Virus record (IMG/VR): IMGVR_UViG_3300029288_000055
Span: 1 to 64,000 of that record
Direction: 5' to 3' (one strand)
Length of the DNA stretch: 64,000 nt
Origin: a virus
Lineage: Duplodnaviria > Heunggongvirae > Uroviricota > Caudoviricetes
Positions within the stretch are counted from its first letter, which is position 1. Each line of letters opens with the position of its first letter. Below, in pieces: positions 3 to 64,000 of the stretch. Under the pieces are notes generated by a model. That model was given only the letters and a program-made list of their open reading frames with translations, was not told the DNA's origin and did not search any database. The position numbers and the translations under genes were made by a program.

Positions 3-839
3 TTTAAATAATTGTACTGTTTTTGCACCTATTGCTTTAGTAGCCTCTTTGGATTCAATAATTTCATTTTTGCCTTCACGATAAACATCTTCAATCATAG
101 CTTTAATTATATCACCCATAGATTCCATATTAACATCATTTGGAAATTTCTGAAGGATGTGCTGTAATCTGAGACTAACTACCCATTCTTCAGCAATTGC
201 TTTTGCGTCTTCAAGAATCTTTGCCTGTTCTGGACTTACTTCTCTCTTACTTTTGGTTTCCATTTGTTCATCTGGTTTGTATTTGCAGATAACCCTTTCA
301 CCATTATTAAGTCTCATTTCAACAAGTGGACGAAGAACTATACCTTCACGTTTCTTTGGTTCTGTAATACCATTGCGAACTGCCTGTACTGACGGTGCAT
401 CCCTTAATGCCGTAAGATTTTCAAGATTTACTTCAATTTTGTCGTAATGAACGAACTCCAAACCAAGTTTGGTACAAACGTCTTCAGCGTTTGGCACATT
501 GAGCCAATTGTCACCAACTTTAACATCAAAGCCAATGAATTTAAGGTCTTTGCCGTAAGTGTGTGACATGCCCTGCTGTTTGCCACCATATGCTTCACCA
601 AATATAACCACTTCAATATCTGGAAACATTTCAGTTAATTTATCTTTCAATAAACCGATATTGAATAAATTACAGAATTTTTCGTGACTTTCACCACCTG
701 CGAAAAAATGAAGTGTCTTTGTTTCAAATTTCCAACCAATATGACTCGAAGTTCCGTGGATTTTTTCCATTGCATAACATTCTTTAAATAAAAGAATTTC
801 TTGACTTTTGTAAAGATTTTGTATGTGTAAGTACCCCAT
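3..839 (-). CDS. RNA ligase, Rnl2 family (3' end runs off window; missing from ORF track)
   Basis: Hand translation from ATG 839: MGYLHIQNLY..AMEKIHGTSSH (motif I)..IFGEAYGG (III)..FIGFDV (IIIa)..REGIVLRP (IV)..VICKYK (V), matching T4 Rnl2-type motifs. Confidence 0.85.
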   Translation of the reverse strand, partial: MGYLHIQNLYKSQEILLFKECYAMEKIHGTSSHIGWKFETKTLHFFAGGESHEKFCNLFNIGLLKDKLTEMFPDIEVVIFGEAYGGKQQGMSHTYGKDLKFIGFDVKVGDNWLNVPNAEDVCTKLGLEFVHYDKIEVNLENLTALRDAPSVQAVRNGITEPKKREGIVLRPLVEMRLNNGERVICKYKPDEQMETKSKREVSPEQAKILEDAKAIAEEWVVSLRLQHILQKFPNDVNMESMGDIIKAMIEDVYREGKNEIIESKEATKAIGAKTVQLFK

Positions 840-850
840 AATTAATTGAT

Positions 851-1099
851 TTATAATTTATTATATAATTGATTTTTATGTTTCTGTCTTTCTTTATCTT
901 TTAATTCTTTACCGTTTCTACCAAGATGATATTTGTGGCAAACCTTGCATTTATATGGAACGATTTTATGAATAACATGATCTTGAGAATTTATAAATTT
1001 TGCAACATCAATGGCTTCATCCTGTGTATCATATGCTTTTTTCGGCACAAATACCGGCTGAAGATTTTCATCATATCGTTCAAGCCTTTGGCATTCCAT
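851..1099 (-). CDS. hypothetical protein with CxxC..H Zn-binding motif
   Basis: YKCKVCHKYHLG; start moved to ATG 1099, which overlaps the upstream stop (TAATG). Confidence 0.65.
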   Translation of the reverse strand: MECQRLERYDENLQPVFVPKKAYDTQDEAIDVAKFINSQDHVIHKIVPYKCKVCHKYHLGRNGKELKDKERQKHKNQLYNKL

Positions 1100-1272
1100 T
1101 ATTTTAACCTTAACATAAATAAACAATCCGACCTATGGATACCGTCATAACAGCCACAATATTCACATTTTTTACCCAACGATAATTTTGCTTCAGTAAT
1201 TACCTTTCTTAAAGGTTCAAAAATATCTTCGGTTTTTTTTGTGCCTGTGTTATCTTCTTTTTCCTTTTCCAT
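1099..1272 (-). CDS. 57-aa hypothetical protein (CxxC..H..C), not in ORF track
   Basis: MEKEKEDN..KKCEYCGCYDGIHRSDCLFMLRLK*; TAATG coupling to the next gene. Confidence 0.6.
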   Translation of the reverse strand: MEKEKEDNTGTKKTEDIFEPLRKVITEAKLSLGKKCEYCGCYDGIHRSDCLFMLRLK

Positions 1273-1277
1273 TATTT

Positions 1278-1487
1278 TTAATCAACAATTTCATTATTCA
1301 TTTCTAAATTATCATCAGGTGACAAATACATTGCTCTGCATTTAACCACATTTGAATATCCAGTAAAATCAATATAATTAGCACCTTTTGCTTTAATGTG
1401 ATTCAACCATTTTATCACATCATCGATTTTATGAAATTCATTAGTTTCAAATCTTTTACGGTTATTTTTATTAAATTCTTTTCTCAT
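1278..1487 (-). CDS. hypothetical protein
   Basis: ORF track; likely start MRKEFNK at 1487. Confidence 0.55.
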   Translation of the reverse strand: MRKEFNKNNRKRFETNEFHKIDDVIKWLNHIKAKGANYIDFTGYSNVVKCRAMYLSPDDNLEMNNEIVD

Positions 1488-1492
1488 AATAA

Positions 1493-1724
1493 TTTTAATT
1501 AAAAACAAGTTTAATCTTAATTATTTCAATATCGTTTATAGTTAATTCCCAATCCAAAGTTTCTTTCTCATATTCATTAATAATATTCCAAAGCCAAATT
1601 TTACATTCTTCTTTTGTTGGTTCTTTTTCAAAAGAAAATATTTTATTATTCTGAAAATTATTAAACAATATGTAATTAATTTTAAATTTTTCCATATTAC
1701 CAATTTTTAATTAAAAACAAGTTT
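1493..1724. repeat. 20-bp direct repeat TTTTAATTAAAAACAAGTTT at 1493-1512 and 1705-1724
   Basis: Exact copies bracketing ORF 1495..1695. Confidence 0.85.
1495..1695 (-). CDS. hypothetical protein
   Basis: ORF track, 66 aa. Confidence 0.55.
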   Translation of the reverse strand: MEKFKINYILFNNFQNNKIFSFEKEPTKEECKIWLWNIINEYEKETLDWELTINDIEIIKIKLVFN

Positions 1725-1918
1725 CATTTATCAAACTTGCAAAGTTAGGTTTAGTCGCCAACTTTCCTTTGTAACGGTGCTTCCTTTGCCAATCGTAAAA
1801 GTTCATGACCTTAAAGTTCATGAACTTATTACAATCAACCATTTTCCTGTGGCATGTTATTCGTCATTTGAACACGCAGCCATCGTGTTAGTAATCGAGC
1901 GCAAGATAAGGATTCGAA
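1715..1918 (-). ncRNA. tRNA 3'-end remnant followed by structured non-coding RNA and a terminator-like hairpin
   Basis: Minus strand: TTCGAATCCTTATCTTGCGCTC (T-loop plus acceptor-like end); hairpins AACACG/CGTGTT, AAGTTCATGA/TCATGAACTT, AAAGTT/AACTTT; then CAAGTTT/AAACTTG followed by TTTTT. Confidence 0.5.
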
Positions 1919-1953
1919 AATTAATATCCAAGTATTTATATAAAAATTTTCAC

Positions 1954-2787
1954 ATGAAACTAAATTTTACTGAAATTGAATATCAAAACACCAAATCAGA
2001 AGAATTATTATCTTGTTTATGCTATTCTTGTAATAAACCATTTAAAACATTTAAAAAAAATATAACCAGAGAATTAAAACACAATATGGGAATAAATAAA
2101 TTTTGTTCAAAAAAATGTCAAGGAGTATATTATACTAATAAAAACACAATAAAAACAAAGTGTAAATGTTGTAATACTGTAATGATTATACCATTATCTC
2201 AATATAAAAACTCTAAATCTGGAAATCATTTTTGTTCACGTAGTTGTGCAGCTACATATAATAGTCCACAAAGAATCTATAAAAATACTATTAAAACTAA
2301 ATGTAAAAATTGTAATAAAGAAATTAAAGTAATATTTTCTGCACATAAAAAATCTAAGTCTGGTAATCATTTTTGTTCACAGTCTTGTGCTGCTACGTAT
2401 AATAATAAACATAAAACTACAGGTAATCGAAGATCAAAACTTGAAAAGTATCTTGAAAAAGAATTAATTAATTTATATCCCAATTTAGAAATTAATTTCA
2501 ATGGAAAAATAACCATTAACTCTGAATTAGATATCTACATTCCTTCGCTTAAACTTGCATTTGAGCTTAATGGTATTTTTCATTATGAGCCAATATTTGG
2601 TCAAGAAAAATTATGCCAAATTCAGAATAACGATAATCGTAAATTTCAAGCCTGTTTAGAAAAGAATATTGAATTGTGTATTATTGATACTTCATCACTT
2701 TCCTATTTTAAAGAACATAATGCACAGAAATATTTAAACATTATTATAGCAATAATAAGCAATAAATCGAAAATAATTACTAAGTGA
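1954..2787 (+). CDS. putative free-standing homing endonuclease: CxxC..FCSxxC Zn repeats plus C-terminal PD-(D/E)XK (Vsr/DUF559-like) domain
   Basis: 47-aa tandem repeat KNTIKTKC..GNHFCSxSCAATYN (141-nt period); SKLE..ELDIYIPSLKLAFELNGIFHY; likely start ATG 1954, 14 nt after GTATTTATA. Confidence 0.8.
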   Translation: MKLNFTEIEYQNTKSEELLSCLCYSCNKPFKTFKKNITRELKHNMGINKFCSKKCQGVYYTNKNTIKTKCKCCNTVMIIPLSQYKNSKSGNHFCSRSCAATYNSPQRIYKNTIKTKCKNCNKEIKVIFSAHKKSKSGNHFCSQSCAATYNNKHKTTGNRRSKLEKYLEKELINLYPNLEINFNGKITINSELDIYIPSLKLAFELNGIFHYEPIFGQEKLCQIQNNDNRKFQACLEKNIELCIIDTSSLSYFKEHNAQKYLNIIIAIISNKSKIITK

Positions 2788-21719: not shown

Positions 21720-22088
21720 CTAATAATATTTGCTAACTAAAGCATCATATTCGTCACTATTTATCCCAAGTTCTTTTTTAATTTTGTTTATCCTAATGTT
21801 ATTTAAAATAACTGCACTAAATAAATATAAAACAAGTGTAACTAAAATAACTGAATATGGAATAAGTGCTGCTTTAATTAAAGCTGTTGATACATTAAAT
21901 ATTGTGCCTAATAAGCCAAAAGTAAATAAAGTCCCTAAAATATATGCAATTGTATTTTTTAGCATTATATCTTTTTTCTCAGTATTCTTTGAAAAATATT
22001 TAAACGCAATTTTAATCCAACCACTTGGTAAATGTTTGTTATATGTTGCGTCAAATTGTTCTTTGGTTATTTTATCTATATTTGCCAT
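21720..22088 (-). CDS. 2-TM membrane protein (holin candidate)
   Basis: Two hydrophobic helices; adjacent to the amidase. Confidence 0.45.
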   Translation of the reverse strand: MANIDKITKEQFDATYNKHLPSGWIKIAFKYFSKNTEKKDIMLKNTIAYILGTLFTFGLLGTIFNVSTALIKAALIPYSVILVTLVLYLFSAVILNNIRINKIKKELGINSDEYDALVSKYY

Positions 22089-24721
22089 TAAAATCCCCTA
22101 TTTTTCTTAACATTACTTGTATCCGTAAATGAATTTGGTTTATAACCAGTTAAATGTTTCATTTTTTCGAATTGTTCATTTATTACTGGTTTTTGACTCT
22201 TTTGTTCATTTTCATTCAATTTCTGGACAGGTGTTTTAAATATGAACACTTCCATACCATTTGTATAGAATTTATTTTCTGACAAAATAGTATTAACATT
22301 TTCATTTACTATAACTCTATTGTTATACTTATTACCAAGTCCATCAAAATTTAATTCAAATAAATTCTCACCATCTTCTGCATGAACAAGTTGTTGTGCT
22401 TCATTTAATTTAAAATTGATAAGTTTTTTCTTACCAAGAAAACCGAAATACTTACCAGTTATAACATGTTCTTTAAGACCTTCTCTTTCATTCCAGCCAG
22501 TTTGTTCTTTATCAAACTGTACTTTTTTGGCTGTTGTATCTTCAACTGGTTGTGGGTCTTTGTTGTACATAGGTGCTTTACCTCTAAACTCAAGATTTGT
22601 TTGTCTTTGCTTATAATTAGTTTCGCCCATATCTGCTTTCATACGATCTTCAAATTTCTGATCTGGTTTGTTGTCATAAACATAATCTTTTAAACTAAGA
22701 CGATATTTATTAACTTCGTCCTGTTCTTCAGTTGTTAAATTACGTTTTGGAATTTCATCACCTTTATCATTAGTAGAATTACCAACATTTTTAAGTGCTT
22801 CGCCACTTTTTGCATCAGTAGCTTTAATTTCAGTATCTTCAATTTCAGTACCTAATTTTTGTGGGTCTTTACCAACTTCTGTCTGTTGATCTTTCCATTG
22901 TAATTCTTTTTCAACATCAATAATTTCTTTTGTACCACTATGTTGCAAATCTTTTTTAAAGTTTGCCTGATTTTCATCACCAAGACGATCTTTCAAGATT
23001 AATGATGAGGGTTTTTTATCTTCGCTCATATTTACTAATTTTTTATGGTGAATTGAATATGCTTTCAATTCGTTATCTAATTCTTCTAATAATTTTATAT
23101 CGCTTTCATTCATTGCACCGCCACCAATGTTCTGCAATCCTGTTGGAACATTACCAGCAGAACTAATTTGACTTGTAGGTGTCATTTTATTTGACATTGA
23201 ATTCGGATTGTCAACAATTATTGAACCTTCGGTTTCATCAACTTTTTCAGGTAATCCCTTATGCTTTGTTGAAGCAAAGTCTTCAGCATCTTTTTCTTTC
23301 ATTGTGTTAGCAGCTTTTGCTACTTTACCACCAACTTCACTCTTAGGTAATTCACCTTTTTGTACTGCATGAACCATACCCATGAATTTTTGTTGTGATT
23401 TTGATACTGATTTTTCTTGTATTTGTTTACTTTCTTCCATTGTTTGTAAATTTACTTTGTCTGGGTCGCCAGTGTTTATTGTGTCTATTTCAATAGATGC
23501 ATCTTGATCATTCCAGTTTTTTACTGTGTCGTTTGTAAAAGCAGTTGTTTTATTAATAATTTTATCATCAACTTCTTTTCTGCCTTCCATTTTTACTTTA
23601 TCCCATAATCCAACAGGTACTTGGGGTGCTGCAGGTTCAGAACTAATAATACTTTTTCCTGCTTCTCCATTATTATCCTGACCATTAAGAAATACGTCTG
23701 CTTCTTCGTTTAACGCATTAAAATATTTTTCAAAACTATTGGGTTCAATAAGATAATTGCTTTCTTGAATGATAGTACCACCTTTAATTGCTGGTTGTGT
23801 TTTTACTTTGGCTTTACCTTTAGTTTTCATAAGATCACCTGAACCCCATACAGCAGGACCGACATATGCACCTGATGAAGCTGAACCAGTTGTTTCATCA
23901 ATCTTTTCTTCTTCAGCTAATTCTCTTTTTACTATACCCAAAGGTGCACTAAAAGCACCTGAACTACCTGCTCCAGTTGTTTCTGCAATACCATTAATAA
24001 CCTCAAGGTTATAACCAAGACTTTCAAGTTCTGTTTTTAACGGAGCATATTCTTCTGGAGTAGCTGGACGACTTTCTTTTGCATAATTAGGATGTGCTGA
24101 CGAGTGCTGACCAACATGTGAGTATGCTGTTTTAAATTCTCCATGATGTGATTCATCTGGAAAATAAGCAAACAAATCAGGATTTTGTGGGTCTCTTTCA
24201 TTAACTAAGAATTCTACTCTTGTTAATGGTTCATCATTCTCAGCAACCACTGGTTTTAAGCCAGATGCTGCAAGTTTCTGTGGCTTTTTAATATCGATTT
24301 TGTGTTGCATAGTCTCTTCTCCTGCCTTTTTTAATTGATTAATACCGCTTGCATCTCTACGTTTTTTTTCTTTGGGAATTGCTTGCTTGTATTTCTGTAA
24401 ATACTTTGGACTATTAAGAACATAATCATTAAATAACATATTCTGAATAGTTTCATTATAATGATATCCATATTTTTCTTCACCATTTTCAGCCATTTCA
24501 TCATATTTTGCAGATAATTTAGGGTCTGAAAATACCAATGCTTCCATCTTAGCCAAACTAAAAATTTTTTTCTTTAATGACTGTTCTGCTTCACTCAATA
24601 AACCATCAGTTTCATTTAATTTAACTCCAAATTGATTACCAATTTTTTTAGAGTCTTTTTGAAACTTAGCACCCAATGGCGTTGGTTTACTCAGTGTTGG
24701 TTTAAATGTTTCTTCGTTCAT
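22088..24721 (-). CDS. large acidic head/core-associated protein with many [LIVM]-x-E sites and a DUF3008-like module
   Basis: EKSVSKSQQKFMGMV..DFASTKHKGLPEKV; repeats ETTGAGSSGAF/ETTGSASSGAY; start MNEETF 24721 (TAATG). Confidence 0.6.
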   Translation of the reverse strand: MNEETFKPTLSKPTPLGAKFQKDSKKIGNQFGVKLNETDGLLSEAEQSLKKKIFSLAKMEALVFSDPKLSAKYDEMAENGEEKYGYHYNETIQNMLFNDYVLNSPKYLQKYKQAIPKEKKRRDASGINQLKKAGEETMQHKIDIKKPQKLAASGLKPVVAENDEPLTRVEFLVNERDPQNPDLFAYFPDESHHGEFKTAYSHVGQHSSAHPNYAKESRPATPEEYAPLKTELESLGYNLEVINGIAETTGAGSSGAFSAPLGIVKRELAEEEKIDETTGSASSGAYVGPAVWGSGDLMKTKGKAKVKTQPAIKGGTIIQESNYLIEPNSFEKYFNALNEEADVFLNGQDNNGEAGKSIISSEPAAPQVPVGLWDKVKMEGRKEVDDKIINKTTAFTNDTVKNWNDQDASIEIDTINTGDPDKVNLQTMEESKQIQEKSVSKSQQKFMGMVHAVQKGELPKSEVGGKVAKAANTMKEKDAEDFASTKHKGLPEKVDETEGSIIVDNPNSMSNKMTPTSQISSAGNVPTGLQNIGGGAMNESDIKLLEELDNELKAYSIHHKKLVNMSEDKKPSSLILKDRLGDENQANFKKDLQHSGTKEIIDVEKELQWKDQQTEVGKDPQKLGTEIEDTEIKATDAKSGEALKNVGNSTNDKGDEIPKRNLTTEEQDEVNKYRLSLKDYVYDNKPDQKFEDRMKADMGETNYKQRQTNLEFRGKAPMYNKDPQPVEDTTAKKVQFDKEQTGWNEREGLKEHVITGKYFGFLGKKKLINFKLNEAQQLVHAEDGENLFELNFDGLGNKYNNRVIVNENVNTILSENKFYTNGMEVFIFKTPVQKLNENEQKSQKPVINEQFEKMKHLTGYKPNSFTDTSNVKKNRGF

Positions 24722-24927
24722 TATTTTATATCGGTTTTCCAAAAATCTTTTTTCTGCCATAACACTTTAACAACTGCTTCCATTGCATTCTTAATAGTAT
24801 TAACCATTTCTTCTCTTGTACGGCTATTTGAACTGCGAAGCACTCTTTTCATTTCTTTATCAAATGAATCATTAACAAATTTCTTAATTTCATCGTTAAC
24901 AATCTTTTCAACTTCTGTTTTCTCCAT
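24721..24927 (-). CDS. hypothetical protein
   Basis: ORF track; GTATTTATA upstream at 24947-24955. Confidence 0.7.
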   Translation of the reverse strand: MEKTEVEKIVNDEIKKFVNDSFDKEMKRVLRSSNSRTREEMVNTIKNAMEAVVKVLWQKKDFWKTDIK

Positions 24928-56349: not shown

Positions 56350-56922
56350 CTATAAATACGACTGTTTAAATTTTTGAATTTCTATAATGATAATATCATC
56401 CAGCTTATTTACTGCTTCAGTTAATCTTAACTCACCATTATTTGCTGTAAATATTCGATATTTTATGTTTTCTGGTACTTGTGATTCGATTTCTTGATAT
56501 GAAATAATGTCAGTATCCCTGTCATCATAAACATTAACTTCTCTCAAATCAGGAAATTTTTTTATATAATCAAGAATTTTTTGACCCTTATTTCTTTCAT
56601 CGCCTTTCATATCAAGTTTATCAACATGGATATTATTAACATCCAATATTGCCTGAACCAAGGGACGTAACCTTACTACTCTTGAAGTTAATACAATAAC
56701 GTAGGTGGCAGGTGTTGAAACATCTTTATTTAAAATGCTTAATACCTTTGGAAATGGTTTAATGTCAAAAACATTTAAATCCAAACTTTCGGGTCTGCCC
56801 CACCAGCCTTGATATTTAAATGGTTCGCCCATTACTTCTGACCAAGTAATCTTTCCAGATTCTTTGTCAGGAGAATTTATGAGTGTTCCATCAAAATCAA
56901 ATGCACAAAATCTTGTTATCAT
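56350..56922 (-). CDS. HAD phosphatase, Swiss-Army-knife RNA-repair type
   Basis: FDFDGTLINSP, GWWG.PESL, LTSR, K, VYDDR. Confidence 0.8.
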   Translation of the reverse strand: MITRFCAFDFDGTLINSPDKESGKITWSEVMGEPFKYQGWWGRPESLDLNVFDIKPFPKVLSILNKDVSTPATYVIVLTSRVVRLRPLVQAILDVNNIHVDKLDMKGDERNKGQKILDYIKKFPDLREVNVYDDRDTDIISYQEIESQVPENIKYRIFTANNGELRLTEAVNKLDDIIIIEIQKFKQSYL

Positions 56923-56923
56923 T

Positions 56924-57307
56924 TTATTTATATTCTACTTCGGTTACTTTTCCTGTTAATGAAAGTGGTTTTCTGATTTTTTCCCAATTAGTGAGATTGT
57001 TAGACATTATTGGTTTACTGCCATTTGTCCTATTCACAGCCAGAGTTATGTGTGCTTTTGCATTATTCGTTTTAAATCCTGATACACCTATTGCAATTAC
57101 CTTATCATCCATTGCAATGTCTTCAACAGCTAATCGTACTGGCAATCCAAGATATTTTTCATACTCAGAGTCTATTTCACCCATATTAATAGTCATATGA
57201 TCAGCTATTACATTCCAGTTTTCAGGAATTATATTTTTAAATCTATTGATCAGTCTTTTTCTTGAATTTTCATCAAGAACAACTGCACTATAAGATATTC
57301 CAGCCAT
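56924..57307 (-). CDS. 2H phosphoesterase (2',3'-cyclic phosphodiesterase-like)
   Basis: DHMTI and AHITLA; SNNLTNW..L.G. Confidence 0.85.
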   Translation of the reverse strand: MAGISYSAVVLDENSRKRLINRFKNIIPENWNVIADHMTINMGEIDSEYEKYLGLPVRLAVEDIAMDDKVIAIGVSGFKTNNAKAHITLAVNRTNGSKPIMSNNLTNWEKIRKPLSLTGKVTEVEYK

Positions 57308-57963
57308 TAATATGTAAATTTTGTAAGTACATTATAATTTTTTCCCAATGCAGTTAATGCAATTTCAACTTCTTTAAAACATTCATTAATACCACCGCCA
57401 CATATTACCAATTTTCCTGAATATTTTTGTAAATATTCCATTAAATCAGGTATATTAAGAGCATCTTGTGCAGGTTGAAGAAAATCACGAACATCACTCG
57501 AATTGTAACCATATTCTTTCATAAAACCAAGCCACATTTCTTCATCAATATCTCTACTATCATTAATATTATTTCGAATCATGTATTTAACAAGATTAAC
57601 TATTTCTTCTTCATCATGACCACTATCCATGCAACTTCTGAAAAATGCATAACCTTTATCATAAAATCTGGCATAGTCGAGTATTGATTCTTTAAGACCG
57701 TTTTGAATTAACCACATTTTATATTCTTCTTCGCCCATACTGCCAACAGTATTTTCACCATTATATAAAAATGTAAGAGAATTCATTGTATCAAAATTTC
57801 TATTTAAAAATCGTATATAATCACCTAATACAAAACTAAATGCATTATGATATTCTGGTTGAATATCAACAGACAAGAGATTTGCATTTTGAACCAGATT
57901 AATGCCTGAATCTTCTAACAATTTATTACGTTGTTGCTCTTTAAGTAGTTTTTCTTTTTTCAT
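57307..57963 (-). CDS. isochorismatase/nicotinamidase-like cysteine hydrolase
   Basis: D-K-C triad pattern: SVDIQ, YDKGY, GGGINEC. Confidence 0.65.
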   Translation of the reverse strand: MKKEKLLKEQQRNKLLEDSGINLVQNANLLSVDIQPEYHNAFSFVLGDYIRFLNRNFDTMNSLTFLYNGENTVGSMGEEEYKMWLIQNGLKESILDYARFYDKGYAFFRSCMDSGHDEEEIVNLVKYMIRNNINDSRDIDEEMWLGFMKEYGYNSSDVRDFLQPAQDALNIPDLMEYLQKYSGKLVICGGGINECFKEVEIALTALGKNYNVLTKFTY

Positions 57964-60900
57964 TAACCAGTATTTTCAATAAAATTAATTTCTTTTATTG
58001 GTATTTTTTCAGGTGATTCATATGAATCCGAACGTGCTCTATGTGTATAAACAAAGAATCCATCTTTATCTGCACCCATGCTTACGCCTTCTGCTTTTAG
58101 CGTTTTATCCATTAATTCTTTTGGTTTAGTTAAACCATGTACATGACCACCTTCTTTATATGTCGAACCACCAGTAAAATATTTAAGAATCTTTTCTTTC
58201 ATTTCGGCACTAATAGATTTTGATCTCATTAATGCTGCTTTAGCATTTTCATAATCTGATTTGCCTTCATTTAATAATTCTCTATCTGTCAACGCCCAGA
58301 GTAATTCTTTTTTTAGTTTTTCATCATGTGTAAAGTCTTCATAATTATTTTGTATAAACTCAAGTACTGAAGCCTCTGAAGGGTCTTTATAACCACTATT
58401 TTCACCACCTTGATGATTCCATTCATCATATTTTTCAACAAAAAATGGTATGCCAACTTTCTGACCATTTATATCCCAAGTACTTATTTTTTCAGGCTCT
58501 AAAGCATCATATGAAAATTCTTTTAATAAACCTTTTTCATCAAGTGACAATATTTTACCGTCTTTTTTACCTTTATGACCTTTCCAAGTATAAACCAACT
58601 CATTACCTTTTAATATTCTTTCTTTTTCAAATGGTTTAACATATTTATCACCTTCACCTTTGTTAACATATGCAATAGTAATATGAGCATGATAGTCAGG
58701 AAATTTACTTGTATTTGGTAATTCTTTCATTATTCCATTTGCTTTTTTCAATACTTCTGAATCAACATCAAATTTAACTACGTCAAATTCAGGATTTTTA
58801 AACACTGAAATACCTTTAATACCTATTTCAATTGGCTTTAATGGCATTTTAGACTTGTAAAGCTCAAATACATCTTCTGCTGTTACTTCGTCATGAAAGC
58901 CATATAAAATTGTGGTATGTGGTTCGTTTTCAATACCATATCCTTCTTTATCATATATATCATTCTTGTCAATTATTGATGTTATCTTACTCCAGATAGG
59001 TACATCAAGAAATAACATTAAGCAACCATATTCAATTCTTTCTGGTATTTTTTCTTCATTAATTTCTTCTGCATTTGCAAATCCAACAATATTTCTTGCG
59101 TTTTGTAATGCATCATATTTTTTTATTGTTGTTAATCTTACATGCGAACCATTAATTGGATGGTTGTAATCAACTCTACCATTGTTAATAAATTCTTTAA
59201 GTTGTTCTTCAGTCATATTTGTTGTCCAAATATCGCCTTTAAATTTAGTGTCTAATGGACGCATTTCAATTAAATATGTGTTTGTTTCTTTATCAAAAAC
59301 AATTTTATTTAATATAACCATCATCATACCACTTGGACTGCCAAAATATAGTTTTTGATTACTATATTTTTTCCAACCCCAACTTTCGACATCTTCTTTA
59401 ATCATTGGCTTTTCTTGCTTTGCCAAAGATAATAATTCTTCTTTATTATTCATAGCCTTATTAGCATAAATTTTCAATAATAATGATTTTTGCATATCAC
59501 CAATTACTTTACCTTGTAAACCAAGTTGCATTAAATCATTACCATTTATTGCTAATTCATTAACTGTTTTTGGATATTTACCCTGCAGTAATTCTTGTGC
59601 TGCAGTTTTAATAACATTAGGTAATATCTGACTTTGCAATGAAGTTGGAGATATCACACACATATTATGAGCAACTGATCTTGCTTCAATCAAATTGGTT
59701 GCTTCACCACTTTCAAATGCTAATTGAAGTGCTTTTATTTCTCTGTATGCATTTTCGTCACCCTTTAAATTAGTTTTATAGAATTCTGCAGGATTATTAA
59801 CAAGATTTTTACTTAACAAGTAAACAAATTCACCCATTGTTCTGACTTTATCAAACGGTTCTTTTGTATTCCTGAAGTCATAATATAAACCTTTACCAAA
59901 TATTTCTTTTAATAAGCCAGTTTCATCCAATAATATAGCACCTGTCAAAATATTACCTTTTTTGATAATTTTATCAAATTCTGTCAAAATTCTTTCAGGA
60001 GCAATTTCTTTTACTCGACCAGCATTGTCTTGAATCATTTTCATTGTCTCTGGTTCAATAATAAAACCAAAACGACTTGCGAACTGTACGGCACGCAACA
60101 TTCTGAGTGGGTCATCACTGAATGCTTGTGGGTTAACAACCTTAATTATTTTATTCTTTAGGTCTTCCTGACCACCAAATGGGTCAACAACATTACCCTC
60201 AATGTCTTTTGCAATTGCATTTATTGTAAAATCTCTACGTTCCAAATCTTTTTCAATTGGTAATGCGTGATCTGATTTAACATCAAATCCTTGGTGACCG
60301 CCTTCACCAGTTGGTGTTTCAGTACGTGGAATTGCAATATCAATATCTTCAGTTGCTCCCTTTGGTTTAAATTTAAGAACACCAAATGATTTACCAACAG
60401 CATCTACACGACCATATTTGCCAAGTATTTGTTCAAGTTGTTCAAATGGCACACCAGTGATAAGAATATCTAAGTCTTTGGATTCTTTGCCAAGAAATTC
60501 ATCCCTGACAGCACCACCAACCGAATATATTTTACCACCAACTTCTTCAACATCTTCCCTGAACGGAAGATAATTTAATCCCATTATTTGTGCTTCATAT
60601 ATCATGCTACGCACTTTTTTATTTGAATATAAAAAATTATTTAAATTTTCTTTATCCATCGGTAATTTGAAAACGTAATTATATCCTTTAAATTCATCAT
60701 CAAGACCAACATCACCATAAATTTGTGATTCTCCACCCAATGAACTCGAATATGCATCAAGCAATATTTCTTTTAGTCTTTCTACTGTTGGTGCATGAAT
60801 ATCTAAAATATTTCCGATCTCTCCTTTATTAAAAATAATTCTTGTATAACCATCACCATATGCTTTTTCATATATTTCTCTTTGATTTTTTATCTCAGGA

Positions 60901-63900
60901 TATAATCGCACCAAATAAGCCAAATGTATATCAGAAGAAACAAATTTATTATCTGGTGTTATCCAACCTGAATGATCATAATTAGGCACAATAATTTTTG
61001 ATTCTGTCAACATTTCATTTACTGGTTCATGTTTTTGTTTACTCTTTTCTGGTTTAAAAGTTTTTACAAATGTATCATAAATTTTCTCAGCAATAACACG
61101 ATTTGCTCCATTTGGTATTTTTTTTCTGAACATCATTTCAATTTTGTTCGCAATCTCGTGAGCGTCATCATATTCGTAACCGTAATGTCTTATAATAAAA
61201 CTTTCAGTTCTTTCATGTAATAGTATTGCTTCAAAATCATTTGGCTTAATCATGAATACATCATCAATCCAATATTCATTTTCTGGAATATTTTTGGCAT
61301 ACTTTTGTTCATCTTCTGGAAGATCAGCATCAACCCAATGATTACCACCATCAACCCATTCAATAAATCCACTGTCACGAACCTGATCACCATTAACTAC
61401 AAAAACTTTATAAGTATTTTTTCCATCCTGATAATTTCTTATAAATTTTTTATCAAGTTCGTGAGTAATAATATCTTTTTCAATTTGTTTTTGAAATGTT
61501 GAAAAATCTTGTTCTGTTAAATCAAATTTATTTTCGGGACTAATGTTTGCAACATAGTCTGAGTAATTATCTGAATATATTTCAACAGATATTGTTTTTT
61601 CTTTATTCAAATATGCCTGTGCTACACGATGATATCCATCTTCAACTAAAAATGTTTTGTTTTCAATATTATAAAACACTAAAACTGGCTCATTTGTGGT
61701 AGTAGGTCTATCTTGTTTAATATCTTGAATTGATGCAATTATACCACGTTTACTAACTGTTAACTTGTTTAATGGAAAATCATTTACTGATATTGGTTCA
61801 TCTTTACTAACACCACGACTTAATTTATTTATATCAATTTTTTCATCTAAATCGTGTACATCTTCTTCGTTTAAATCCCAAAAATCAAATGAAGCCTGTT
61901 CAGCAAGATCATCAAAATCATCTGGTGATTTATCTGACATTATAGGTACTTTGCTGCCATATTTATTACGAATATAATTTTCAACATCACTTGATTTATA
62001 TTCTAATAATCGTCCAATCTCACGTGCTTCTTCTGGGGTTCTATCTGCAATATAACCATTGTTTCTTTTAACAATTTCATATAATAAATATGCATTAATT
62101 TTATCACGATATATGATTGCCATCATTGTTTGATGTGAAGTCATTCTCGTAGGAATAACACTAATTTTCTTTTTTTCTAATTTTTGAGCAATTGCTTTAT
62201 TTATTTCAGCAAAACCCACATTTCTTTTATTATTTAAAACCGATTTAATTGAATCAATATTAGTGCGAACATCTTTTACACTTATTTCTTCATTAATTTC
62301 TTCATTTTCTTTAAGCGGTTTTATATCCAAATTTTTAATATCACCTTGATTACAAGCAACGCTGGTATTACCAAGACCGCCTAATCTACATTTCTTTTTA
62401 ACATCAACAGTACTACTGCCAGCCATTGAAGATAATACTCGTTCAGATATTTCAAAATCATTAACTGGTGATGATATGTCAACAGCATTAATTGTTGATA
62501 TTTCTTTATTGAAAAAAGCAACTAATTTATGATATCCATCTATTAAAATTTTATCTGACACATTAACCACAAAATAGTCATTTAAATGTTTCTCAATATT
62601 TTCTTCATAATATTTTATTGTTTCTATTTGTTCTTTTTTTGCATAATCAAGACTATCCTCAATTTCACCATTATTGTAAAACAAATAAATATCTTTTACT
62701 TTTATTTGTTTAACTTCAAAATAATTATTATCATATTCATCAATAGTAATAAAATTCCATAATATTTCACGTTTGTCAGGCATTTCAGAATAAACATTAG
62801 ATAACTTAACGCCATTAATATGCTGAAATTCTTCACTCATTAAATATTCATCTTTGGTTGCATCATTCACATGATTATATTCTAAATCTTCATTATACAT
62901 TGATCTGTTTGCATTAAGATCATTTTGAATTGATGGCGAATTATCTGTATTATCATGTACAGGAAAATCATCTTGACCCATTGAATTATCGGTTGAAAAC
63001 TTAGCTGAACCATCTTCAGGTATGTATACAATATCCTGTGCGGTAAGTGTTGGTTCATTTGCTCTATAACCACCAATATCAAAGAATTTTAGTATCCCAT
63101 TTTTATATCCTAAATTACTTGGATTGCCATAATCATCTGATTTAATACCATATTTATATAATTCTTCCTGTATATTAATCAAATCAATTAAATAATCATA
63201 TGCCAATTCTCTATCTTCATTAGATATGTTTGTTTCAGGTTTATCTGTTAATATGTGCTTTGCAACTTCTGTTATTTCTGCAGGAGTTCTTTTACGCATT
63301 TTTAATAATATATCAATAAAATTTAAACCTGCTGGTTCAATTTTATTAATAATATCCATATATCTAAAAAATTCTGCTCTTGGTTTATCCTGAATGTTTT
63401 CTTGAAGTATAGCAAAAAATGCCAATTGTTTTTCAGTGTCAATTACTTTATAAAACGAATATATTTTACTAATATATTTTGGTTCTTCATTCATTAATTT
63501 ACCAGCAGCATCTGCTTCGCTTTTATCTGCTGTTAATTTAAAAATTACATTATCATTTACTGTAAAGGCATAACCATTTGCACCACCATCCAAATATTGT
63601 AATTGACCAATATTTAATTTTGCTGCAACAGCATTTGCCAATTCAATTGCATAGTTCTTATTCTCTAAAGTATATGGTTGAACTGCAGGTTTTGATGTAC
63701 TTGTTATTTCATTAATTTCATATTCTTCTTTAAGTAATGGTTCTCTATTATATAAATTTTGTTCAATAAGACATTCTTGAAGTGCTAACAAATTATTATA
63801 GAATTTCTTTTTCTCAGGAACACGTTTCAATACTTCTTTAAGATTATTTACACAGTTATGAAATTCATCAAGAACATATGGTGCACTTGGCAACTTTTTT

Positions 63901-63998
63901 GGATATTTATCTCTGGCAAGCACAAACGAAATGAAACCTTCATTAATAACGCCACCGCCATCACCAACACTATAGGGCATTTGCGCCCACATACCTCT
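57963..63998 (-). CDS. giant multi-domain (polyvalent) protein, N-terminus beyond window: kinase-like, 2x ParB-like, zincin-like, CCA-type nucleotidyltransferase, Acb1-like 2H phosphodiesterase, plus unknown domains
   Basis: GGANGYAF..FKLT..DYGN.SN..FFDIG; IDGYHK; EDGYHR; LHERTE..AH; VGGAVRD..DLD..RRDFTINA..DDPLRMLRA; YGCLM..PHTTILYG..HITIAY; the frame is open to the window edge. Confidence 0.9.
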   Translation of the reverse strand, partial: RGMWAQMPYSVGDGGGVINEGFISFVLARDKYPKKLPSAPYVLDEFHNCVNNLKEVLKRVPEKKKFYNNLLALQECLIEQNLYNREPLLKEEYEINEITSTSKPAVQPYTLENKNYAIELANAVAAKLNIGQLQYLDGGANGYAFTVNDNVIFKLTADKSEADAAGKLMNEEPKYISKIYSFYKVIDTEKQLAFFAILQENIQDKPRAEFFRYMDIINKIEPAGLNFIDILLKMRKRTPAEITEVAKHILTDKPETNISNEDRELAYDYLIDLINIQEELYKYGIKSDDYGNPSNLGYKNGILKFFDIGGYRANEPTLTAQDIVYIPEDGSAKFSTDNSMGQDDFPVHDNTDNSPSIQNDLNANRSMYNEDLEYNHVNDATKDEYLMSEEFQHINGVKLSNVYSEMPDKREILWNFITIDEYDNNYFEVKQIKVKDIYLFYNNGEIEDSLDYAKKEQIETIKYYEENIEKHLNDYFVVNVSDKILIDGYHKLVAFFNKEISTINAVDISSPVNDFEISERVLSSMAGSSTVDVKKKCRLGGLGNTSVACNQGDIKNLDIKPLKENEEINEEISVKDVRTNIDSIKSVLNNKRNVGFAEINKAIAQKLEKKKISVIPTRMTSHQTMMAIIYRDKINAYLLYEIVKRNNGYIADRTPEEAREIGRLLEYKSSDVENYIRNKYGSKVPIMSDKSPDDFDDLAEQASFDFWDLNEEDVHDLDEKIDINKLSRGVSKDEPISVNDFPLNKLTVSKRGIIASIQDIKQDRPTTTNEPVLVFYNIENKTFLVEDGYHRVAQAYLNKEKTISVEIYSDNYSDYVANISPENKFDLTEQDFSTFQKQIEKDIITHELDKKFIRNYQDGKNTYKVFVVNGDQVRDSGFIEWVDGGNHWVDADLPEDEQKYAKNIPENEYWIDDVFMIKPNDFEAILLHERTESFIIRHYGYEYDDAHEIANKIEMMFRKKIPNGANRVIAEKIYDTFVKTFKPEKSKQKHEPVNEMLTESKIIVPNYDHSGWITPDNKFVSSDIHLAYLVRLYPEIKNQREIYEKAYGDGYTRIIFNKGEIGNILDIHAPTVERLKEILLDAYSSSLGGESQIYGDVGLDDEFKGYNYVFKLPMDKENLNNFLYSNKKVRSMIYEAQIMGLNYLPFREDVEEVGGKIYSVGGAVRDEFLGKESKDLDILITGVPFEQLEQILGKYGRVDAVGKSFGVLKFKPKGATEDIDIAIPRTETPTGEGGHQGFDVKSDHALPIEKDLERRDFTINAIAKDIEGNVVDPFGGQEDLKNKIIKVVNPQAFSDDPLRMLRAVQFASRFGFIIEPETMKMIQDNAGRVKEIAPERILTEFDKIIKKGNILTGAILLDETGLLKEIFGKGLYYDFRNTKEPFDKVRTMGEFVYLLSKNLVNNPAEFYKTNLKGDENAYREIKALQLAFESGEATNLIEARSVAHNMCVISPTSLQSQILPNVIKTAAQELLQGKYPKTVNELAINGNDLMQLGLQGKVIGDMQKSLLLKIYANKAMNNKEELLSLAKQEKPMIKEDVESWGWKKYSNQKLYFGSPSGMMMVILNKIVFDKETNTYLIEMRPLDTKFKGDIWTTNMTEEQLKEFINNGRVDYNHPINGSHVRLTTIKKYDALQNARNIVGFANAEEINEEKIPERIEYGCLMLFLDVPIWSKITSIIDKNDIYDKEGYGIENEPHTTILYGFHDEVTAEDVFELYKSKMPLKPIEIGIKGISVFKNPEFDVVKFDVDSEVLKKANGIMKELPNTSKFPDYHAHITIAYVNKGEGDKYVKPFEKERILKGNELVYTWKGHKGKKDGKILSLDEKGLLKEFSYDALEPEKISTWDINGQKVGIPFFVEKYDEWNHQGGENSGYKDPSEASVLEFIQNNYEDFTHDEKLKKELLWALTDRELLNEGKSDYENAKAALMRSKSISAEMKEKILKYFTGGSTYKEGGHVHGLTKPKELMDKTLKAEGVSMGADKDGFFVYTHRARSDSYESPEKIPIKEINFIENTG

Positions 63999-64000
63999 AC

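Follow-up and report, generated by a model that had tools for sequence, protein, structure and literature searches.

A candidate head-cargo polyprotein of a T4-like jumbo phage carries a gp21-type cleavage motif at each of its joints

We analysed the first 64 kb (64,000 nucleotides; hereafter, the window) of a phage contig, C1 (IMG/VR record IMGVR_UViG_3300029288_000055), and found that its minus strand encodes a giant protein of 16 segments in which the motif [LIVM]-x-E ends every one of the 15 joints. The prohead protease of T4, gp21, cuts after L/I-X-E (PMC9026906). Judging from the sequence and by analogy with T4, we consider it likely that this protein is a head-cargo polyprotein, packed in the prohead and cut by a gp21-type protease.

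The reading frame is open without a break from 57963 to the window edge and on to C1 64706, giving a polyprotein of 2,247 aa and 257.5 kDa (gene at C1 57963-64706, minus strand). Its start lies 706 bases past the window end, and the ATG at 63992 is internal. A preliminary description of the window, made from the sequence alone, had reported a single uninterrupted open reading frame (ORF) of more than 2009 aa, and the full-length gene bears this out. Misassembly is unlikely, since coverage of the stretch by the probable source sequencing run was even, at ~300x, with no listed difference. Comparison with relatives placed the joints at residues 212, 256, 333, 564, 625, 755, 806, 947, 1065, 1235, 1371, 1771, 1884, 2063 and 2147; L/I-x-E occurs in 14 of the 15, and several joints carry two or three copies of the motif. 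The linker motifs listed in the preliminary description were found where it had placed them, although those ending at E212, E256 and E564 had been missed. A further kinase-type module, at residues 1-212, lies beyond the window. About 30 long relatives carry differing module sets, which places the family among polyvalent proteins, defined as phage or mobile-element chains of 2-15 biochemically unrelated domains whose architecture varies; the query itself has 16 segments.

A motif as permissive as [LIVM]-x-E proves little when it is found near a boundary picked by eye. Its composition alone would give the whole protein ~49 matches; there are 63, of which 42 are not at joints. Since this count is barely above chance, the test had to be positional and unguided by the motif. 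For comparison we assembled 61 related proteins, non-redundant and with few exceptions encoded at the same locus. At BLAST alignment ends marking a change of neighbour (breakpoints common to kin, hence not independent), the motif Glu lay at position -1 in 25% and at position 0 in 20%, against a background of 2.6%; alignment starts peaked at +2 to +4 from the motif, and the controls [LIVM]-x-D and [LIVM]-x-K were flat. We also used each module without its upstream sequence as a query and counted each distinct upstream neighbour once, with a 7-residue search span. The motif ended 48 of 51 neighbours and, in the fair test on rows other than those of the polyprotein itself, on which module starts had been placed by eye, 33 of 36 (chance, 0.177). 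All three exceptions were a variant of the CCA-adding enzyme module with its own N terminus. The reversed control, E-x-[LIVM], was raised at joints too (21/51), far below the motif, a rise that is expected because acidic and hydrophobic residues follow the site. Among 150 database representatives, whose entries are not independent, the motif was present at 189 of 218 module starts (chance, 0.24), and as a negative control, homologues of the ParB-like module PB9 in remoter contexts mostly lacked it.

In structural models, the stretch between joints 1371 and 1771 corresponded end to end to a complete free-standing CCA enzyme (model 307-708 on 1MIV 1-404). The structural match of the 2H phosphodiesterase module fell within 1884-2063. 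Joints adjoining well-modelled domains were low-confidence coil, and internal matches in those domains were mostly helix or strand. AlphaFold failed on PB6, PB9, a5, c7 and much of Z10 and GW11 (see the table for segment names), for which the alignments were too shallow; low confidence in these models reflects that lack of depth and is therefore uninformative on linkers. Overall, the placement of the motif at joints is not chance. The enrichment in linkers that the preliminary description had proposed to check is thus present at motif-blind boundaries but slight in the total count.

At nine main joints the motif was kept in 92-100% of aligned relatives, unlike two secondary copies, and internal matches had a median retention of 59% (p 0.017 versus the main joints). 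Modules are gained or lost at the motif among relatives, and a comparison of domain order, as the preliminary description had suggested, revealed that modules vary and that swaps run from motif to motif. The same was seen in deletions in related strains from other sequencing runs: one (60598-61014) removes GW11 and has 19 letters in place, and another (62441-62832) removes PB6. A further strain deletion, at 59052-59392, removes u13 on shorter support (40 letters); strain breakpoints with short sides (20-35 letters) were disregarded. Together, these genome comparisons show cassette exchange at the motif. At 222 junction sites, synonymous codon use equalled background and 101 different 9-mers were used, so selection acts on the peptide. 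Its preferred form has L or I at P3 and N, K or D at P2 (best, L/I-N-E).

The preliminary description had also called for a gp21-like protease in the genome, and we found one (S77) at C1 174117-174818 (PF03420, E 6.5e-19). In its alignment with T4 gp21 (5JBL, E 1e-10), the His and Ser stand where the 5JBL chain has Ala, and the Asp is kept, so that all three catalytic residues are in place. The gp23 capsid gene (C1 170647-172323) encodes an I-N-E that ends at residue 60; [IL]-[NK]-E is invariant here in 54 relatives and is followed by Ser or Ala in 53. From this position and conservation, we infer that the capsid motif is a cut site. In T4, gp21 takes a 65-residue propeptide off gp23, and it trims the internal proteins and Alt, both of which are ejected into the host (PMC9026906). 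Matches to [LIVM]-x-E also occur in the scaffold, the portal C terminus and the protease.

An upstream motif, GTATTTATA, lies ~30 bases before the polyprotein start. The gene shares the motif GTATTTAT, ~30 bases upstream, with the scaffold, portal and neck genes, and ~82 of 467 genes have it; the polyprotein gene may be expressed late. Stand-alone versions of the modules had short motif-ended leaders in 18 of 28 cases, reminiscent of the T4 capsid-targeting sequence, and modules bear the motif at their C termini too, even before a stop. An association with the late motif was seen for a narrow leader, II-x-EE (8 of 13 genes, p 5e-4, for a pattern picked post hoc). At the N terminus of the polyprotein, we observed a Y-x-x-F spacing like that of the T4 targeting sequence (Y/F-x-x-F), modelled as a helix of the first kinase-type module, K1; many relatives, although not the query, have an L-x-E near residue 13. 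Strong indirect support for the processing proposed in the preliminary description comes from four sources: the motif at module boundaries, the gp21-type protease, the matching motif in the capsid protein and the sequence upstream of the gene.

We envisage that the 257-kDa chain would be expressed late and built into the prohead core, and that the gp21-type protease would cut exposed hydrophobic-x-Glu sites during head maturation, yielding up to 16 pieces of 5-45 kDa. Matches within folded domains would be protected from cutting; with 42 matches off the joints, specificity must come from folding. By analogy with T4, the folded enzymes of 10-45 kDa may stay inside the head and be delivered, along with the DNA, into the next host. 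Since each module ends in a site, modules can be swapped between phages as cassettes. We also lean, with less assurance, towards a wider proposal: that across a widespread T4-like jumbo clade the protease of head maturation would also serve to process polyproteins, acting on a cassette array at a fixed late locus. Any enzyme that ends in the protease site could then be plugged into the array, be packaged by a common targeting route and be freed as an effector before infection.

Several observations weigh against a packaged and cleaved polyprotein. In T4, proteins that are cut many times are mostly scaffold that leaves the head, and retained cargo loses terminal propeptides only (PMC9026906). 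The first motif in the query comes at residue 83, and its N terminus has no clear cleavable leader. Some of the 42 matches away from joints are conserved. Across the proteome, the loose motif was enriched neither at N termini nor in late-motif genes, and the latter result speaks against the proposal. Glu or Asp often follows the joint site, as opposed to Ser or Ala at the capsid site. Finally, no close cultured phage is at hand, the best capsid matches having 33-42% identity.

We therefore weighed four other explanations. The protein might be an uncleaved polyvalent protein whose motifs are relics of the leaders of fused packaged genes and no longer matter. Motif-ended leaders on stand-alone modules, a frequent Met at junction P3/P4 (15/48) and the N4 virion RNA polymerase, which is packaged unprocessed (PMC5512222), all suit this idea; however, at old joints the motif is conserved throughout (25/25, 24/24 and 13/13 relatives) although some adjacent positions are variable, and the motif stands at module C termini even with a stop next, and we regard relics as unlikely. 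Nor do we favor a motif, repeated along the protein, that mainly mediates binding or targeting to the prohead core, or to some other partner, with few or no cuts. Such a signal would fit T4, in which the targeting sequence and the cut site share one 10-residue peptide (PMC9026906), and would fit the acidic residues common past the Glu. It is distinctly unlikely given that what is invariant in the motif matches the gp21 consensus and that the motif marks the last residue of modules and the expected end of the capsid propeptide.

Cleavage could instead take place in the cytoplasm, without packaging, with either a host protease or the HExxE..H module of the chain itself doing the cutting. Self-processing by embedded metallopeptidases has been proposed for polyvalent proteins (Iyer et al., PMC5512222), and Z10 has a zincin-like motif. 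Several complete relatives without Z10 (L048, L050, L064, L038, L016 and L014) nevertheless keep motif-ended joints, so Z10 is unlikely to be the processor; in addition, the joint motif is that of the capsid site, and we judge this route improbable. The remaining candidate, a DNA element (a recombination hot spot or an overlapping stop/start) whose translation is hydrophobic-x-Glu by coincidence, would account for strain-level deletions that fall at the motif and for N-E codons that include ATGA. The variety of junction 9-mers and their background synonymous codons make it extremely improbable, and we rejected a DNA-level signal on the codon use.

Both gp21-trimmed cargo and polyvalent proteins are already known. 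With T4 IPI-III and Alt, the predicted system shares a head module of gp21/gp22/gp23 type and the L/I-x-E cut, and cargo that is packaged, trimmed and ejected, steps that are predicted here from sequence (PMC9026906). Each T4 cargo protein is one enzyme and is trimmed terminally, whereas here 15 internal sites part 16 unrelated segments. With polyvalent proteins (Iyer et al., 2017, PMC5512222), it shares a large mosaic enzyme chain whose architecture varies between relatives. From their typical repertoire (MPTase, ART, GNAT, 2H, ParB and others), 2H is present in the query and ART-PolyVal and GNAT in relatives; MuF, ArdC-N and the other listed polyvalent anchor domains were not detected in the query, whose main components are a CCA enzyme and kinases. 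Polyvalent proteins have been proposed to be processed by embedded peptidases of zincin or assemblin-like type, and the accessible text of that paper describes no junction motif; Z10 is only zincin-like, and many relatives that lack it retain the motif. The head proteases of phiKZ and SPN3US (gp175 and gp245; PMC5694885, PMC9026906) also cut many internal proteins after Glu, but the cuts described strip propeptides, at another motif and in another head type, and the accessible portions of these papers describe no release of multiple enzymes from one chain. RNA-virus polyproteins, an analogy only, likewise derive many proteins from one ORF by means of one virus protease and a short site; their proteases and domains are unrelated, and the phage protease is an enzyme of capsid maturation, encoded apart from the chain.

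In a literature search that covered mostly journals outside subscription, we found no paper on a separate prohead protease that cuts a many-enzyme chain at every joint. If true, such processing would widen the role of the prohead protease from propeptide trimming to maturing whole enzyme sets, would provide a DNA-phage counterpart to RNA-virus polyproteins, and would give polyvalent proteins, for which cleavage is so far conjecture only, a rule of processing. The motif is also a practical guide for splitting giant unknown phage proteins into testable units, and it points to a pool of candidate proteins that might act before any transcription of phage genes.

Segments of the polyprotein gene (window coordinates unless marked C1)
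Feature	Coordinates	Residues	Strand	Remarks
Polyprotein gene, part in the window	57963..64000		-	
K1, kinase-type	C1 64071-64706	1-212	-	outside the window; ends at E212; motif-level or weak match
s2, 44-aa acidic segment	63939..64000 (begins at 64070, outside the window)	213-256	-	ends I-N-E, kept in 24/24 relatives
h3, small helical module	63708..63938	257-333	-	two terminal motifs, E327 and E333
K4, protein-kinase/APH fold	63015..63707	334-564	-	ends I-P-E, kept in 13/13
a5, conserved acidic segment without a confident fold	62832..63014	565-625	-	ends M-S-E
PB6, ParB/Srx-like	62442..62831	626-755	-	DGYH motif only; exactly absent in one related strain
c7, short two-Cys module	62289..62441	756-806	-	
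u8, alpha/beta domain	61866..62288	807-947	-	
PB9, ParB/Srx-like	61512..61865	948-1065	-	DGYHR; weak SbnI profile match, E 0.18
Z10, putative HExxE..H metallo-domain	61002..61511	1066-1235	-	motif-level
GW11, GWITPD module	60594..61001	1236-1371	-	exactly absent in one related strain
Class II CCA-adding enzyme	59394..60593	1372-1771	-	PF01743, fold
u13	59055..59393	1772-1884	-	exactly skipped in one related strain
2H phosphodiesterase	58518..59054	1885-2063	-	two HxT motifs, fold Z 12
t15, small helical module	58266..58517	2064-2147	-	in relatives, first module of a stand-alone gene whose leader ends in the motif
t16	57966..58265	2148-2247	-	matches PHROG 3666

The identities of the modules differ in firmness. 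Those of the class II CCA-adding enzyme (a class II nucleotidyltransferase in the preliminary description) and of the 2H phosphodiesterase are firm on sequence and model, or on model, respectively, and the kinase at 63015-63707 is supported by the modelled fold (Z ~8-10); the ParB-like and zincin-like labels of the preliminary description stem from motifs or weak matches. The CCA module matched PF01743 (E 4e-23) and PF12627, also over the cut-off, and its fold aligned to 1MIV with Z 28.9 over 378 residues. Its sequence shows the head, neck, body and tail layout of class II enzymes, with DxD, RRD and DxxR motifs. The best Pfam match of the 2H module was Acb1, at 25.9 bits, below the cut-off of 27; its fold scored Z 10.7 against Acb1 and Z 11-12 against other 2H enzymes, and on sequence and model an assignment to Acb1 in particular is insecure. 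Pfam and NCBIfam searches with single modules named only the 2H module, under the cut-off. No pairwise similarity was found between K1 and K4. The fold of u8 pointed to PDB 2GUK at Z 9.0 and, at Z 8.0, to that of the methyltransferase NleE (NCBIfam E 0.006). For Z10 and u8, the Atlas clusters were either without a name or low in score, the nearest named cluster to Z10 being Peptidase_M78 at 0.78, a lead only, and PDB profile searches with the ParB-like modules were weak or empty. The c7 module was found in ~80 database representatives, with the motif on both flanks in most; at 45-50 aa, it is among the most widely retained parts of the locus and at times occurs in tandem copies. GNAT and ART-PolyVal domains are swapped in among relatives, and the ART-PolyVal match exceeds its cut-off.

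A counter-defence role is less secure than packaging and cleavage. The preliminary description had proposed an injected counter-defence kit, which is plausible, but only the 2H module points to a known anti-defence family, below the Acb1 cut-off. At least 40 of the 55 phage tRNA genes have no encoded CCA end, so the CCA module may serve phage tRNAs or repair damaged ones. GNAT and ART-PolyVal domains are typical of conflict-related polyvalent proteins (PMC5512222), and the rapid turnover of modules would fit an arms race. In our estimate, the odds that the role is mainly counter-defence are about even, and a mixed cargo for takeover and translation support is just as likely.

The contig C1 (362,763 bp, 30.5% GC) belongs, judging from its genes, to a T4-like jumbo phage: the gp23 capsid protein, the gp21 protease and a T4-type portal all exceed Pfam cut-offs. 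It was binned with 37 further contigs in an assembly that totals 1.27 Mb. This bin, G000, groups the 363-kb phage contig, and possibly C6 (29.9% GC), with ~0.85 Mb of contigs mostly at 35-42% GC, and membership is no evidence on the host. The best holders of the sequence were landfill and groundwater metagenomes; none of the sequence holders listed was an RNA data set. The 55 tRNA genes and a tmRNA lie at C1 195944-237385. A tRNA with a CUA (amber) anticodon was found at C1 237313, yet long ORFs read through under code 11.

Further observations concern the neighbourhood and the relatives. Directly downstream of the polyprotein gene (56350-57307 of the window) are a stand-alone 2H gene and an RNA-repair-type HAD gene; this 2H is fused to the polyprotein end near a motif in L010, L014 and L023. 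In L006 (12283), L059 (6326) and L047 (5238), a protein ends on the motif Glu with the stop codon next. In L021 (6618-10747), and also in L018, L028, L047 and L059, the polyprotein breaks off within the first few residues of the CCA module, and another CCA allele follows, starting from an ATG of its own; in L018 and L021 an inserted gene of ~320 aa stands between the two.

Elsewhere on C1, the II-x-EE leader, a candidate capsid-targeting leader, occurs on unrelated small genes (261967-264059, 194144-194752, 210230-210682, 213429-214757, 244598-245464 and 251304-251912), mostly behind GTATTTAT; two of these genes encode ART-PolyVal. Other large motif-rich proteins, possibly head cargo or core proteins, are encoded at C1 187163-189814 and 113802-115964 and at 22088-24760 of the window. 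A second over-represented upstream pair on C1, TGTAACCT and CGTATAA, is probably an early or middle promoter.

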